From the NCBI RefSeq assembly GCF_006345805.1, contig NW_021834480.1, forward strand, positions 1 to 47,932: a stretch of DNA of 47,932 nucleotides, given 5' to 3'. The position numbers and the translations under genes were made by a program. Below the pieces are notes generated by a model, which worked only from the letters and a program-made list of their open reading frames with translations, was not told the origin of the DNA and made no database searches. This document shows positions 3,515-42,934 of the stretch, one piece after another; position 1 is the first letter of the stretch, and each line of letters opens with the position of its first letter. This DNA is from Octopus sinensis (lineage: Eukaryota).

Positions 3515-3997
3515 CTGTAAATCCTCGAGTATAACCCACCCTTGAATATAATATGTAGGGGATTTTCAGAGGGCTGTATCTCTGAAAAACCTAAACCTTG
3601 TGTATAATACGCACCCCTTCTCTAACTTGAGCCAAGGAGATCTATATAACGTCCTTGGTTTGTAAAGATGTATACGGTAACGTCCTTTATTATTATTGTA
3701 TATATAACATAATGCAAACGTGTAGCTTTTTTGTGCATTTTGTTTGCAGAAAATAAAGAAATAACAGTAATAACGTTTAATAAATGCTGCTTACTGCAAG
3801 TTATGGATGATTCTTTTTTTACTTCATTGCTTTCAGGCTTAGCTTAAGGTATTTTCGTGCCCGACATCAGAAAATGCGTCTGAATAAACATTGCCAGACA
3901 GCAAATAGAGACTTGGACATTGCTTAAAAATAATTTTTATTTTTAACCTTTAAATTTTTTTGGGGGGGGGATGCGGATTATACTCAGGGATTTACGG
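3515..3997. mobile_element. Tc/pogo-like MITE
   Basis: TA TSD; TIR CTGTAAATCCTCGAGTATAA / TTATACTCAGGGATTTACGG. Confidence 0.75.
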
Positions 3998-7360: not shown

Positions 7361-7430
7361 AAAAAGCCATATCACCGGAATTTTGTGACAACACAAATTA
7401 TGAGAAATATTCTAGAAATAACTTCCTATA

Positions 7431-8220
7431 AGGCGGTGAGCTGGCAGAAACGTTAGCACACCGGGTGAAATGCGTAGCAGTATTTCGTCTGCCGTTACGT
7501 TCTGAGTTCAAATTCCGCCGAGGTCGACTTTGCTTTTCATCCTTTCAGGGCTGATAAATTAAGTACCAGTTATGCACTGGGGTTGATCTAATCGACTTAA
7601 TCCCTTTGTCTGTCCTTGTTTGTCCTCTCTGTGTTTAGCCCCTTGTGGGTAATAAAGAAATAGGTATTGCGTCTGCCGTCGCATTCTGTGTTCAAATTCC
7701 GCCAAGGTCGACTTTGCCTTTCATCCTTTCAGGGTTGATAAATTAAGTACCAGTTATGCACTGGGGTCGATCTAATCGACTTAATCCGTTTATCTATCCT
7801 TGTTTGTCCCCTCTATGTTTAGCCCCTTGTGGGTAATAAAGAAACAGGTATTTCGTCTGCTGTTACATTCTGAGTTCAAATTCCACCGAGGTCGACTTTG
7901 CCTTCCATCCTTTCAGGGTCGATAAATTAAGTACCAGTTACGCACTGGGGTCGATGTAATCAACTTAATCCGTTTGTCTGTCCTTGTTTGTCCCCTCTAT
8001 GTTTAGCCCCCTGTGGGTAATAAAGAAACAGGTATTTCGTCTGCTGTTACGTTCTGAGTTCAAATTCCACCGAGGTCGACTTTGCCTTTCATTCTTTCAG
8101 GGTCGATAAATTAAGTACCAGTTATGCATTGGGGTCGATCTAATCAACTTAATCCCTTTGTCTGTCCTTGTTCGTCCCCTTTATGTTTAGCCCCTTATGG
8201 GCAATAAATAAATAAGAAAT
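7431..8220 (+). mobile_element. Tetrameric tRNA-derived SINE (Meta/Sauria-like core), 184-bp period
   Basis: One head plus units starting at 7479, 7663, 7847 and 8031; flanked by AGAAATAAC(T/A)TCCTAT duplication. Confidence 0.9.
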
Positions 8221-8684
8221 AACATCCTATGCAGCACCTTAAAGATGTTCATTCAAACAACGAAATATACTGTGAAATGAATAAGCACTATTTATGAAAA
8301 TGCTGGTATGTGTGCGCATCCCTGGTAATTTTGTTTTTAAATAGCAAAACAGTAGAAAAACGTAGATTGCAAAGCTTAATTCAATAATGAAGAAATGACA
8401 GGTGTTATAGAACATAACTGATAACCCAGTCACCTCGCAAATTAGAGATAATGGTTTGGGTCCTGTCTGTGAACCTGGTTCATTCACCGGTCCTAAGGTT
8501 ATGCTGACACTGTCTGTCATTTTATATTGGAATGTTTTTGCAGTTTATCTATAAAAGTACATGGCCATGATATTGAGGTGTCATAGGTGTGTGTGTGTTG
8601 TGTGATCATCATCATCATCATTTTAATATACACTTTTATATGCTCGCATGATCTAGATGAAATTTGTCGAGGGAGATTTTAATA

Positions 8685-28329: not shown

Positions 28330-28407
28330 ACAGTTGTTACGATGTAAGTTGGGTTAAAAACAAAGGCAAAATAACAATGGAAAACAAAGGTTTACACTTT
28401 ATTTTAT

Positions 28408-28447
28408 TATTCAATATTTCGGGTCTAAAAAACCCTTATCAAGAAAA
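28408..28447 (-). ncRNA. Minimal type-I hammerhead ribozyme motif, U3:A8 core variant
   Basis: TTTTC-TTGATAA-GGGT[TTTTTAG]ACCC-GAAA-TA-TT-GAATA; short stem I. Confidence 0.55.
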
Positions 28448-29430
28448 GAAATACTGAAAACTGATATTACCTCCAATCACTGATAAGAGGACATAGAAAG
28501 ATGGGGGTGGGGGTGGGGGAACAGGTAGATGGGAAAAGGAAATTTGCTAATTAGCATCACGAAACATTTGTCTGTTGTTGAGGCAGGGTTTTAGTCTCTT
28601 TTTTTTTAACCAATAAGTTTTGTTTCCTTCGTTTGTAGGAATTGTTATGGGTAAACAAGTTCTTCATTGGATCCAAAAGACGATTTCCCATTTCACTTCC
28701 TCATTTCACCTAGATTATCTTTTTTTTCTTTTTTGTTTACTTGTTCCAGTCATTAGACTGTGGCCATACTGGAGGCACCACCTTACAGAAATTTTAGTGG
28801 GGACATAAACACACCAACACCAGTTATCAAGTGGTGGTGGTGGTGGGGGGAACAAGCATTAACACAAAAATACTCGCACACACACATACATACATGCATG
28901 CATACAATGGGCTTCTTTCAGTTTCCTTCTACCAAATCCACTCACAAGACTTTGATTGACCTGAGGCTATGATAGAAGATACTTGCTCATGATGCCTCGC
29001 AGTGGGACTGAACCTTGAACCATGTGGTTAGGAAGCAAACTTCTTACCACACAGCCATGCCTCTGCCTTATTTTACTTACTTTCCTGATGCAGTTGAGAA
29101 AAGCATGATTGTCACAAAATCACTTTTTATATTCGTTGATAATCTGGAATTTTCTCATTAATTTCCTTGTTTTCATCCATAGGAAAACGGTGATGAAAAA
29201 AATGAGAGAATTACATTGAATTCTGTGATGTATTTAGATCTGTATCTTTTTGTTCTGAGTTCAAATCTTTTCAAGCCACACTTATCTTGTCCTGGATAAG
29301 GGGCCATTAAAATAAATACCCATAACATAATTGTAAAGATGTTTTTTATGAATTATTAATAAAAATAAATTACTGTTGTTCTTGTTGTTGTTGTTTCTGA
29401 GTGAAGTTGTATGTTCAAAACTTGTTTGTC

Positions 29431-32005: not shown

Positions 32006-32307
32006 GATATAAAGTAGGGACCCATAAAAGATGTTGTCTTCGATTGATTAGAAGGACTGAAGGACCCGTGATGTTTGGGGAAGTACAAAGGAGAAATAGA
32101 AAAAGAAAGAAAACATTGAAACAATTGTGGGTGGGGGTGAGATCAACAACAATGACAAAAACAATAATAAGCAGAAACAATGAATAGTATGTTGTATTTT
32201 GGGAGGGTCATACTGCCAATAAATAAAAGCACATGCACTGGTACTGTTTCACTTCAGTTTTATTGCTAATTAAGTACATAATTAATCAATGAATCAATTA
32301 ATTAGTC

Positions 32308-32349
32308 TGACAAAGCCCTTTCATCACAGTTGTGACCCTATCAGTGTCA
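32308..32349 (-). ncRNA. Decayed minimal hammerhead motif, family B
   Basis: TGACA-CTGATAG-G-GTCAC[AACT]GTGAT-GAAA-GGGC-TT-TGTCA. Confidence 0.55.
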
Positions 32350-38852: not shown

Positions 38853-38885
<33 letters not shown>

Positions 38886-39465
38886 TGGATGGATGGATGG
38901 ATGGATGAATGTATATATATATGTATATATGTATGTATGTATGTATGTATGCATGTATGTATGTATGTATGTATGTATGTATGTATGTATGTATGTATGT
39001 ATGTATGTATGTATGTATGGATGGATGGATGGATGGATGGATGAATGTATATATGTATGTATATATGTATGTATGTATGTATGTATGGATGGATGGATGG
39101 ATAGATGGATGGATGAATGTATATATGTATGTATGCATATATGTATGCATGTATGTATGTATGTATGTATGTATGTATGTATGTATGTATGTATGTAGTA
39201 TGTATGCATGTATGTAAGTATATGTATGTATGTGTGTATTTATGTATGTATGTATGTATGCATGCATGTATGTATATATGCATGTATGCATGCATGCATG
39301 TATGTATATATGCATGTATGTATGTATGTATGTATGTATATATGCATGTATGCATGCATGCATGTATGTATATATGCATGTATGTATGTATGTATGTATG
39401 TATATATGCATGTATGTATGTATGTATGTATGTATGTATGTATGTATGTATGTATGTATGTATGT

Positions 39466-39665
39466 GGAGGACTTAAACGACATGCGAAGGTACATGAAGC
39501 CCAGTTACAACTACAGCCGGCTATTACCAGTAAAGGTTTTAGTGGCCAATTCTGTACAAGACATTGTAGATCTTTAGCTGGGCTAAAAAGTTACATTCGA
39601 TTACAGCACCAATAACAGTTAAGCTTCGTGCAATGGCCATACTCGATAACGAGGGGGCAGCCATA
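39466..39665 (+). mobile_element. Second diverged RTE-like zinc-finger 3' end within (ATGT)n
   Basis: GGLKRHAKVH...FCTRHCRSLAGLKSYIRLQH*; 3' hairpin CTCG-ATAA-CGAG then ATGT tail. Confidence 0.65.
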
Positions 39666-40507
39666 ATGTATGTATGTATGTATGTATGTATGTATGTATG
39701 TATACGTGTATGTATGTGTGTGTGCATGTGTGCATGCATGTGTGTACATGTGCATGGATGTGTGTGTGCATGTATGTATGCATGTGTGTGTGTGCATATG
39801 TGCGTGTATGCATGCATGAGTGTGTATGTATTTTATCTTTACTGCCCACAAGGAGCTAAACATAGAGTGGACAAACAAGGACAGAGAAAGGTATTAAGTC
39901 GATTACATCAACCCCAGTGCATAACTGCTACTTAATTTATCAACCCCCAAGATGATGAAAGGCAAAGTCGACCTCAGAATTTGAACTCAGAACGTAAAGG
40001 CATACGAAATACTGCTGAGCATTTTGCCCGGCGTGCTAATGTTTCTGCCAGCTCACCGCCTTTGCATGAGTGTATATATGTATGTATATGGGATTTTAGC
40101 CTTTTAGCAGCATTCAGATTATACTTTTAAATGTAAAGCTTATTTATTCACATTGTTTTGAATTAATTATGCTTTACCACTTAAGATTTCAATGATGCAA
40201 TTGTCTATTTTTAGAATGACATTGTTAGGTAAGTGCAAGAGGCCAGATCTGATCTGTCTGAACATGAAACAAGTAGAATATTTAATACATGTATATATTA
40301 CTGACGTTCATATCATTAACGTTGACCCTTTAGCATGTAGATTACTCTGTCAAATATAAAGCTTAGTTACGGAGATGTACTTGCATAGCGAGTGACTTGA
40401 TCTGAGATCGTGTGCTGGAACGAAAACAATTGCATTGTGGAAGGTGTTTATAAGCCATTTAAGAAACACACAAAAACCGTTAGATTCACTTCAACACTTA
40501 AATTTAA

Positions 40508-40558
40508 TTTGTCAAAATATTTTCGTCGCTTTGAGACCGCAACTTGTTCACTGACAAA
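40508..40558 (-). ncRNA. Minimal type-I hammerhead ribozyme motif, G3:C8 core variant
   Basis: TTTGTCA-GTGAACA-A-GTTGC[GGTCTCAAA]GCGAC-GAAA-ATAT-TT-TGACAAA: 7-bp stem I, 5-bp stem II, palindromic stem III. Confidence 0.75.
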
Positions 40559-41457
40559 GCTTCGAGCTGCATTGTTTTGAATTAATCCTGCATTATCTCA
40601 TAGAGTCAAGATTTCAATGATGTGGTTATTTATATTTAGAATGGCATTGTAGGGTAGGTGTGAGTGGCTGGATCTGGCTAGTTTCAACCTAAAACAGGTA
40701 GAATACCTGTGTCAGATGTGGCCAGTTTAAATGCCAAATGGTTCAGGCAATTTCCAACAGATTGTGTTTCCAGATGCTTCCTGCAGTTGGAAGGAGACAC
40801 CGGTCACCTTGGGACATTCTTGCCACCAGACGCTGGGTGTCCAGCCTTCAGTGTAAAGATAGGAATACTGGCAAAGGAGCCGTGTCCAACATCGTTCTAC
40901 GCTTCATTGCACAGGTCTCTTCCTTTCCTGCAAAAGTGGGTCACTTCCTGTAACTAATTTGATTTTCAATGATTAAATACTTCCTGTTCTGTTCCTGTGT
41001 TGCTATGATGCTTTGGAGAGAGAGAGAGGGAGAGAGAGAGAGAGAGGGAGAGAGAGAGAGAGGGAGAGAGAGAGAGAGAGAGAGAGGGTGAGGGAGGGGA
41101 GTGGAAGGGAGAGTAATGAAGAAGAGAAGACAGGAAGCTGGAAGACACGCAATTTATTTTAAATATTAATACAAATAGATTTATGGCTCTGCAATTGATG
41201 CGATAGATCGTCTGGCAATGGAAGCGTGGCTGAATTGTACCTAAAGCTTCCGGTTAGAACTCTACCTGTCAACAATACAGGATAATAGCCATTGGCAGCA
41301 TGGACTGAATGGAAGGTGCCCCCGGTCAGACTCTTGTGAGACTAAATGGGAGCTGCTTCTGTCAGAATCCCTGTGCAACTGAGCAATTCAGTCTGGGGTC
41401 CACTCCATTTGGGAAAGGGCCCAGAAAAGTGGCATTAAACTCATCCATGCAATTCTT

Positions 41458-41874
41458 ATTTCTTTATTGCCCACAAGTGGCTACACACAGAAGGGACAAA
41501 CAAGGACAGACAAATGGATTAAGTTAATTATATCAACCCCAGTGTGTAACTGGTACTTATTTAATCGACCCCGAAAGTATTGAAAGGCAAAGTCAACCTC
41601 GGCGGAATTTGAACCCAAAACGTAAAGATAGATGAAATACCTATTTCTTTACTACCCACAAGGAGCTAAACACAGAGAGGACAAACAAGGACAGACAAAC
41701 AGATTAAGTCAATTATATAGACCCCAGTGCATAACTAGTACTTATTTAATCGACCCCGAAAGGATGAAAGGCAAAGTTGACCTCGGCGGAATTGGAACTC
41801 AGAACGTAAAGACAGACGAAATACTACTAAGCATTTCGCCCGGCATGCTAACGTTTCTGCCAGCTCGCCACCTT
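41458..41874 (-). mobile_element. Dimeric SINE of the same family
   Basis: Perfect 17-bp TSD TCATCCATGCAATTCTT at 41441-41457 and 41875-41891. Confidence 0.9.
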
Positions 41875-42934
41875 TCATCCATGCAATTCTTGGACAGGAA
41901 ACTGTACCTGTCAGGACATTTCTCCAAATTATATCTGTAACCCACAAAGAGAAGAGAATAAGTCAATGCAGCAATGAAAAATCTTATTTTTCATTTTACC
42001 CCAATTTTCATGATTAAAAATGAAAAGATTCCTTGATGATCAGCATTTGATGCTAATTTTATGTATAGTAAAATGATGGCCCATTTCATAATTAGGATAA
42101 GTATAGTAAAAACACCCCCTACACTCACGGAGTGGTTGGCATTAGGAAGGCCATCCATCTGTAGAAACACTGCCAAATCAGACTGGAGCCTGGTGCAGCC
42201 TCCATGGCTTACCAGACCCCGGTCGAACCGTCCAACCCATGCTAGCATGGAAAACGGACGTTAAATGATGATGATGATGATGATGATGATAGTCTACATT
42301 TTAGTTGAGAGATTTTGTTCAGGAAAAAAAAAGTGATTGGTTTATCACACTGACAAAGGTTACCAAAATTGTTGTTCTGAAAATATCAACCTTCATATGT
42401 AGAGAAACATCAGGGAGGACAGAAGCTATGCATTAAATTTTAACATCGGCCATCTTTTTGGCAATAGAAAAATAGGACTTAATTCCAACAGAGAAGAAAT
42501 CCATTTTGAGATTTACCTACACAAACCTAATTGTCATGGTTATTAAGTATTGCTAAGATTTGACTAATTAATCAGAGACCTCAGGGTGATCATGATTAAT
42601 TTCAAGTTTGTATCCTAAGTGATAACTGGATGTCTGATGCAAAAGGCATTTGTTATTGATCAATAAAATATTGAGTATTGCAGAACCTGATATAAATTGA
42701 ATCAAGTCTCAACCTCATTCAATAGTTTTCACCAATGACAATAACTTCGTCAAGTTAGAAAAGAATTCTTTCCATATCACTTTTGGTAAATTAACATATG
42801 CACTTGAAACATCCTTAAGCTGAAATACTAGTGTATATAACATTTATAATGTTAATAGAAATGTAGAACAATACTATCTGTAAAAACTGTGGTGTGTTAA
42901 AAACTCAGGGCTCCACTCACAAGAGTGGTGAACC

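Follow-up and report, generated by a model that had tools for sequence, protein, structure and literature searches.

A minimal hammerhead motif with a G3:C8 core pair, shared across a high-copy family of octopus Penelope-like elements

Introduction

In the core of the active hammerhead ribozyme, the nucleotides at positions 3 and 8 pair with each other in a tertiary contact. Published mutant data report that C3G or G8C alone abolishes cleavage and that the C3G/G8C double change partly restores it (PMC11167929; review PMC8495972). The hammerhead of an anole Penelope-like element (PLE) is described as having this same partial rescue and as cutting only when protein is present; hammerhead mutants left in vitro insertion unaffected, and RNA-seq reads are reported not to end at the site (PMC11167929). 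The minimal hammerheads (min-HHRs) of metazoan PLEs are described as needing to dimerize before they cut, and as cutting weakly even then (Cervera and de la Pena 2014, PMC4209133). A G3-C8 variant has been mentioned as more active with G17 than with C17, with the data not shown in that paper (PMC3884650).

We analyzed a window of Octopus sinensis DNA, the whole stretch of 47,932 nucleotides, in which a preliminary description had noted a hammerhead with its 3 and 8 core letters exchanged. We think it probable that the motif is a minimal type I hammerhead of a PLE family, with G3:C8 as a family-wide and likely compensatory state, and that it would be a slow ribozyme, expected to cleave only when dimeric or when helped by the element's protein.

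Results

Structure of the motif in the window

The motif lies on the minus strand at 40508 to 40558, as parsed by sequence, fold, and descriptor. Stem I is the perfect 7-bp helix that had been reported: its 5' strand (40552 to 40558) pairs at 7/7 positions with its 3' strand (40508 to 40514), 40558-40552 facing 40514-40508. The core was also read as reported, GUGAACA instead of CUGANGA, at 40551-40545 of the minus strand, with G3 (40551), U4, G5, A6, A7, C8 (40546), and A9; the literal CUGANGA is absent, and positions 3 and 8 form a Watson-Crick pair, G3:C8. Stem II (40525 to 40543, with 40543-40539 against 40529-40525) has the expected five pairs, one of them U·G, is closed by G10.1-C11.1, and carries a 9-nt loop II; an extra nucleotide at 40544, between 9 and 10.1, had gone unmentioned, and it is A in the window copy and G in most copies. 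The segment from 40524 to 40515 reads G12 A13 A14 A15.1 (40524-40521), AUAU, U16.1 (40516), and U17 (40515), following the sequence and the hammerhead numbering given in PMC4209133 and PMC7151607. The AUAU insert together with A15.1 and U16.1 makes a 6-nt palindrome, AAUAUU, which bears out the claim of a palindromic stem III in part; the full 10-nt palindrome cannot be stem III. Pairing that longer palindrome from end to end would tie up A13, A14, U17, and the first base of stem I as well, in competition with the active fold. Sequence and numbering place the predicted cut 3' of U17, at 40515/40514, the site that had been proposed.

A three-way junction with stems I and II is present (7/7 and 5/5 pairs), as are U4 G5 A6, A9, G12 A13 A14, A15.1-U16.1, and H17, together with two marks of PLE min-HHRs, the extra nucleotide between 9 and 10.1 and the G10.1-C11.1 pair. 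Apart from the literal CUGANGA, the motif has the structural features of a PLE min-HHR, a palindrome that may serve a dimer among them, and it would work in the manner of one.

A strict descriptor that accepts any Watson-Crick 3:8 pair matched the window once and never matched its dinucleotide shuffles (300 of them, 14.4 Mb), which upholds the observation as a whole. Folding energy alone was not significant (z -1.3, with 22 of 200 shuffles folding equally well). An Rfam search of the window matched no hammerhead family; strict searches therefore do miss a G3:C8 hammerhead, as the preliminary description had expected of canonical ones. It had also called this the most intact motif. Among the four hammerhead-like places returned by a relaxed scan of the window, 40508-40558 is indeed the best paired, but it departs from its family at two positions: the extra base at 40544 is A where 91% of 162 family copies have G, and one stem II base differs.

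The insert and its surroundings

The motif belongs to a 206-bp insert (40367 to 40572, minus strand), not one of about 190 bp as first estimated. The insert is a short PLE copy made up of the 3' part of the pseudo-LTR (pLTR), the hammerhead, the 5' UTR, and the first 30 codons of the open reading frame (ORF), and its sharp ends are common to 28 other loci. The codons occupy 40369 to 40458 on the minus strand, with the ATG at 40458, and are 85% identical to the N-terminus of the Octopus protein P0001. The insert interrupts, as had been stated, a MITE-like host repeat, with a few target bases lost and without duplication. The left part of this repeat (40322 to 40366, plus strand) and its right part (40573 to 40743, plus strand) are continuous in relatives L118, L124, and L125. 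The best 40 of 5,217 first-look candidates are mostly 79-86% identical to the right part, and intact relatives have TTAA-CCC...GGG-TTAA inverted-repeat ends. The host may be a piggyBac-like repeat.

A second, partial copy of the host repeat lies just to the left, at 40094-40284. A larger region, 38856-42100, is 99% identical over 3.2 kb to locus L002 (G000:C22:9396165-9399405), which suggests that the contig of the window probably repeats a chromosome-scale region, either through assembly or through a recent duplication. Positions 7427-8331 hold a tandem repeat with 184-bp units of a common interspersed repeat. We searched the whole window for a same-family partner and found no other copy of the G3:C8 family. 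Three other minus-strand places are of note: a decayed short copy of a sister family at 1913-1973, with U3·G8 at 1966; a decayed sister-PLE short copy at 32190-32346, with the hammerhead core scrambled at 8-9 (32344); and a possible U3:A8 minimal hammerhead with a 5-bp stem II and a 3-bp stem I at about 28405-28450.

The parent element

Translation of the insert's final 90 nt gives a peptide that matches the start of P0001. We label the genome searched G000, its loci by L-numbers, and the G3:C8 PLE family as family A. A peptide search of the genome led to L157, a near-complete parent, where a G3:C8 motif, an ATG, an ORF, and a second pLTR with G3:C8 follow one another. The two motifs, at 3565 and 7926, flank an ORF that is read as two overlapping pieces (608 + 475 aa), and the pLTR-ORF-pLTR arrangement includes a direct repeat of about 640 bp at 94% identity. 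The window insert matches both pLTRs of L157, and of L158, and the frame of its 30 codons runs on for 597-608 aa in L158 and L157. At L156, an open frame of 1,042 aa lacks the first ~50 residues. DK-x-G, YxDD, and GIVY-C-C-YIG motifs are visible by eye in L156 and L157, and both have a C-X3-C-X2-C linker (of the CX2-5CxxC type) before the endonuclease. Pfam gave no RT or GIY-YIG match on four family-A ORF pieces and a sub-threshold GIY-YIG on sister family D; the assignment of family A to PLEs draws on the motifs read by eye and on structure. The parent is an EN+ PLE, pLTR-ORF(RT, GIY-YIG-like)-pLTR, whose single ORF, by these motifs, joins an RT to a C-terminal GIY-YIG of the CCHH kind. Many homologues turned up at 30-58% identity, most of them carrying no name. 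In the parent, the hammerhead falls wholly inside the 5' UTR, about 50 nt before the ATG.

The motif is part of a high-copy PLE pseudo-LTR, so what the window holds is a passenger and no locus-specific ribozyme. This copy, solo and slightly decayed, is probably inert. The preliminary interpretation was right that decay of the single copy does not account for the swap, and missed the membership in a high-copy pLTR.

Among the first 30 loci found with the core pattern, 19 have an adjacent inverted partial copy, three of the inverted pairs being two halves of one inversion and three of the loci one duplicated insertion; many loci abut (TA)n. The 3' ends fall at element position 205-206 in 12 loci and at 144-150 in 14 (26/30 together). 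Inverted partners, two 3' ends, and (TA)n targets agree with what is described for related elements (PMC8557442) and with the two internal RT starts reported in PMC11167929. The flank of L003, considered as upstream element sequence, proved to be a different repeat. At L061, L064, L065, L082, L083, L087, L088, and L090, one inverted-pair insertion with shared flanks recurs on C1, and it probably travels inside a larger repeat.

Two loci hold head-to-tail arrays with units of about 170-210 bp: L310:5330-7528 (n=11, 10 of them G3:C8) and L312:4252-4905 (n=4). The G3:C8 motif might on that account now work mainly in short tandem arrays, each unit behaving like a retrozyme that cleaves itself and closes into a circle, and solo copies would be by-products. 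Tandem type I hammerheads are reported to yield circular RNAs (PMC7229834), and retrozymes have been proposed to derive from PLE pLTRs (bioRxiv 10.64898/2026.07.22.740005). Against this, the arrays come from two examined loci, variable (TA)n separates their units so that amplification at the DNA level is possible, and the sampled copies are mostly solo or in inverted pairs, the window copy being solo. We consider such a role very improbable.

Counts and variation of the G3:C8 family

When the genome was searched with the insert, the best 40 of 2,340 candidates were scored, and the best of the others are 94-97% identical and share the same two ends. A 19-nt core pattern gave 6,444 matches with G3:C8, 429 with G3 and a letter other than C at 8, and 236 with C8 and a letter other than G at 3, or 7,109 in all, counts that include inverted partners and assembly duplicates. 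The reversed-pattern controls gave 0 matches. The genome-wide look at G3/C8 that had been proposed as a check thus found the pair in 6,444/7,109 pattern matches. When a longer pattern left positions 3 and 8 free, G3:C8 occurred in 90 of the first 100 among its 1,894 matches and C3:G8 in none of those 100, and a C3:G8 pattern matched 23 places in the genome, 0/23 of them in the G3:C8 family. Since G3:C8 is family-wide and C3:G8 members are lacking, the swap was already present in the master elements.

These counts bear on whether the motif could be a chance look-alike or a canonical hammerhead decayed in this one copy, as the folding z-score of only -1.3 and the lack of an Rfam match might suggest. 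The family counts refute both versions, and we give them practically no weight: the shuffles gave no match, the same core recurs identically thousands of times, it sits inside a PLE pLTR, shortly before the ORF, and the family is without any C3:G8 copy.

At conserved core positions, the commonest letter occurs in 95-100% of the 162 copies, part of which were retrieved by patterns covering positions 4-9. Variants at position 3 follow the element's neutral spectrum (C in 16/100 versus 27/207 in the background, p 0.37). At position 8, where letters were hand-counted from match listings, G accounts for 37 of the first 100 variants against a background of 13% (p 1e-9), about a threefold excess of G3·G8. 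Copies with G3·G8 are spread over several subfamily diagnostic backgrounds, which does not support the single clade that we considered. From this excess on several backgrounds, it appears that unpaired cores were propagated; G3·G8 may be an intermediate, a reversion, or a mutation hotspot.

The sole subfamily-level stem change is A>G in the stem I 3' strand (30/162 copies), which retains pairing as U·G. The loop II sequence separates subfamilies A1 and A2, and the window copy belongs to A1 by loop II and peptide. Between A1 (n=15) and A2 (n=30), 0/41 stem and core columns differ versus 10/73 free columns (p 0.013), a weak test given that 5/10 differences lie in loop II, perhaps as one event, and that some rows are duplicates of one locus. 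Of these copies, 37/45 have G3:C8 and six have G3·G8; all six are A1 copies, and one duplicated locus accounts for three. With its greater number of broken frames, A1 looks the older subfamily, which fits an intermediate and does not prove one. Coding constraint was considered for the core and set aside, as the motif lies before the ATG and well beyond the ORF stop. For other organisms, contigs of four runs cover the element, but no differences past 40541 appear in their table, even at places where family and window differ, so that it is uninformative for positions 3 and 8. A look for expression listed no RNA data set that carries the element.

Sister families and the 3:8 pair

Four further PLE families in the same genome carry related motifs at the homologous site. 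The state is C3:G8 in families B, C, and D, the last with C at position 9, and U3:A8 in E. In all of them G10.1 is preceded by an extra base, stem II has 5 bp, the stem III insert is short, and the motif stands before an ORF start homologous to that of A; in B and C, the 5' letters of stems I and II were fixed by the search pattern. All listed copies of family D (L159, L162, L166-L170, and L201-L203; e.g. L201:4871) have C instead of A9, and frames in this family are long, 1,044 aa in L201. The C9 of family D hints at a relaxed core in the clade. Family E (L204:3160(-), L204:7472(+), and L165:2972(+)) combines U3:A8 with a stem II of 5 perfect pairs and a stem I of 3 bp.

A quick tree computed from 34 pieces of the ORF's C-terminal part, rooted at the midpoint and built without B, C, or named clade members, places A as sister to D+E (SH-aLRT 99, 50-55% amino-acid identity). 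The polarity of the swap rests on C3:G8 being canonical, as the tree has no outgroup hammerhead states. The five families have three Watson-Crick states at 3:8 and no mismatched family state, which is the best evidence for a constrained 3:8 pair. Judged from these sequences, the G3:C8 swap is likely compensatory. The earlier view that the double change is compensation rather than decay gains support from the family-wide G3:C8, from the C3:G8 and U3:A8 of sister families, and from the partial rescue by the engineered double change. As an account of a ribozyme it is partly sustained: the G3·G8 excess and, as described below, the negative footprint and an active dimer that is not the predicted best fold count against strong catalysis.

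We see as a tentative possibility, less probable than not by some distance, a stronger version of this history, in which family A would hold the first natural, high-copy, working G3:C8 hammerhead, with three 3:8 states in one genome, and the G3·G8 excess in the older subfamily would consist of relics that make a path C3:G8 > G3·G8 > G3:C8 readable.

Cleavage and the 5' ends of copies

The predicted cut shows no enrichment of genomic 5' ends. We estimated about 74 (52-94) ends there versus 59, 33, and 72 at three controls, sampling 30 loci for each position out of 124, 161, 200, and 359 matches, for a cut/control ratio of 1.3 (0.8-2.1). Eighteen of 30 loci without U17 looked cut-started (16 by eye), and we rejected this as a cleavage footprint because the controls gave similar numbers. 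In an incidental sample, 2/52 ends were at the cut, both explained by stem I homology. As for folding, the 6-nt palindrome that could join two copies is present, and the active double-hammerhead dimer (-20.8 kcal/mol) lies 5.6 kcal/mol above the dimer MFE (-26.4; monomers 2 x -11.7) in nearest-neighbour folding, in which core tertiary contacts are ignored. The U17 of the G3:C8 family would weaken a G3-17 mispair.

The motif might instead be a catalytically silent fold, with stems kept as a structural or protein-binding RNA element or merely inherited, cutting dispensable, and G3:C8 fixed by drift via a tolerated mismatch. The flat 5'-end counts, the G3·G8 excess, and the C9 of family D are in keeping with this, as are the normal in vitro insertion of anole PLE hammerhead mutants and the report of no RNA-seq ends at that site (PMC11167929), and the poor cutting described for min-HHRs even as dimers (PMC4209133). 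However, 5/5 families keep a Watson-Crick 3:8 pair, in three states, and drift is unlikely to restore a tertiary contact; U4, G5, A6, G12, A13, and A14 are also conserved. On balance, we regard silence as unlikely and prefer a slow hammerhead.

Short copies begin at a fixed 5' end. In the parent pLTR (e.g. L157:3500-3545), a branch-point, pyrimidine-tract, and AG-like signal ends exactly where they begin, and a donor-like site also lies upstream. The predicted spliced junction has one match genome-wide, and on that count we rejected the idea that splicing from the donor-like site produced the short copies. Among 89 distinct copies that start at the fixed 5' end without upstream pLTR, AG precedes 34 and GAG precedes 22. 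Our guess from these letters is that the end reflects a transcription start with a cap-derived G rather than splicing.

Discussion

The preferred reading of family A, a slow hammerhead with a compensatory core, suggests the following course of events. The swap would have arisen once, on the family-A lineage, and G3:C8 may have been kept through a requirement for Watson-Crick geometry in the 3-8 tertiary pair. Two motifs in parent transcripts would join via the 6-nt palindrome to form stem III, allowing a cut after U17, and the parent RNA hammerhead would cut only when two copies pair in this way or when the ORF protein remodels the RNA. Most genomic copies, the window copy included, were presumably reverse-transcribed from uncut RNA, with priming that we infer to be internal, at a point roughly 30 or 90 nt past the ORF start, and copying to the fixed 5' end. 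An origin of the short insertions from uncut RNA is suggested by their intact motifs together with the lack of a 5'-end footprint.

The window locus itself is an ordinary passenger copy. What was an engineered rescue mutant is here a natural, family-wide state. CUGANGA descriptors and Rfam miss all 6,000+ motifs, so hammerhead counts may be too low, and claims of PLE clades without hammerheads may likewise understate. The sister set (C3:G8, U3:A8, G3:C8, and C9) offers ready constructs on whether PLE hammerheads must cut.

Natural G3:C8 did not turn up in the literature that we searched, in which the only counterpart was the engineered partial rescue; Lunse 2017 (PMC5785218), Hammann 2012 (PMC3334697), and Przybilski 2007 (PMC1986816), which lie outside that search, may report natural or tested cases. 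The octopus motif shares with the min-HHRs of metazoan PLEs, as described by Cervera and de la Pena (2014, PMC4209133), the type I topology, the extra base 9/10.1, G10.1-C11.1, the palindromic stem III insert, the pLTR location, and the occurrence of thousands of solo copies per genome. It differs in its core, G3:C8 here against C3:G8 there, and the only 3:8 covariation given in the text of that paper is U3-A8 in Schistosoma, where stem I has 4-5 bp versus 7 bp here. Natural U3-A8 hammerheads (Perreault 2011, PMC3088659; Cervera 2014) are likewise a natural compensatory 3-8 change, one that family E also has. They differ from the C3:G8 state by two transitions, whereas G3:C8 takes two transversions and loses the purine at 8.

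The engineered C3G/G8C hammerhead of the anole Poseidon element PAc (Frangieh 2024, PMC11167929) has the same double change, with partial rescue. According to that report, the PAc hammerhead also sits at the pLTR-ORF junction of an element with two internal RT starts and two 3' ends. The change is natural and fixed in the octopus family and engineered in PAc; moreover, the PAc hammerhead overlaps the start codon, whereas the octopus motif is wholly in the 5' UTR, and the octopus ORF, unlike that of PAc, has a linker Zn finger of Neptune/Nematis type. With Neptune/Nematis EN+ PLEs as described by Craig (2021, PMC8557442), the octopus family shares the C-terminal GIY-YIG-type domain, the CX2-5CxxC linker, inverted 5'-truncated partners, a tail-like second 3' end, and (TA)n targets. 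Its tail is about 60 nt versus the 30-40 given for Neptune/Nematis.

Non-LTR retrozymes (Cervera 2020, PMC7229834) are alike in being short units with type I hammerheads, and the octopus family has two tandem arrays. They are unlike it in that octopus copies mostly stand alone or in inverted pairs, have a minimal hammerhead, and share their sequence with an autonomous parent. Natural U3-A8 hammerheads and PLE min-HHRs were already known; added here are the copy number, the parent element, and the covariation across sister families.
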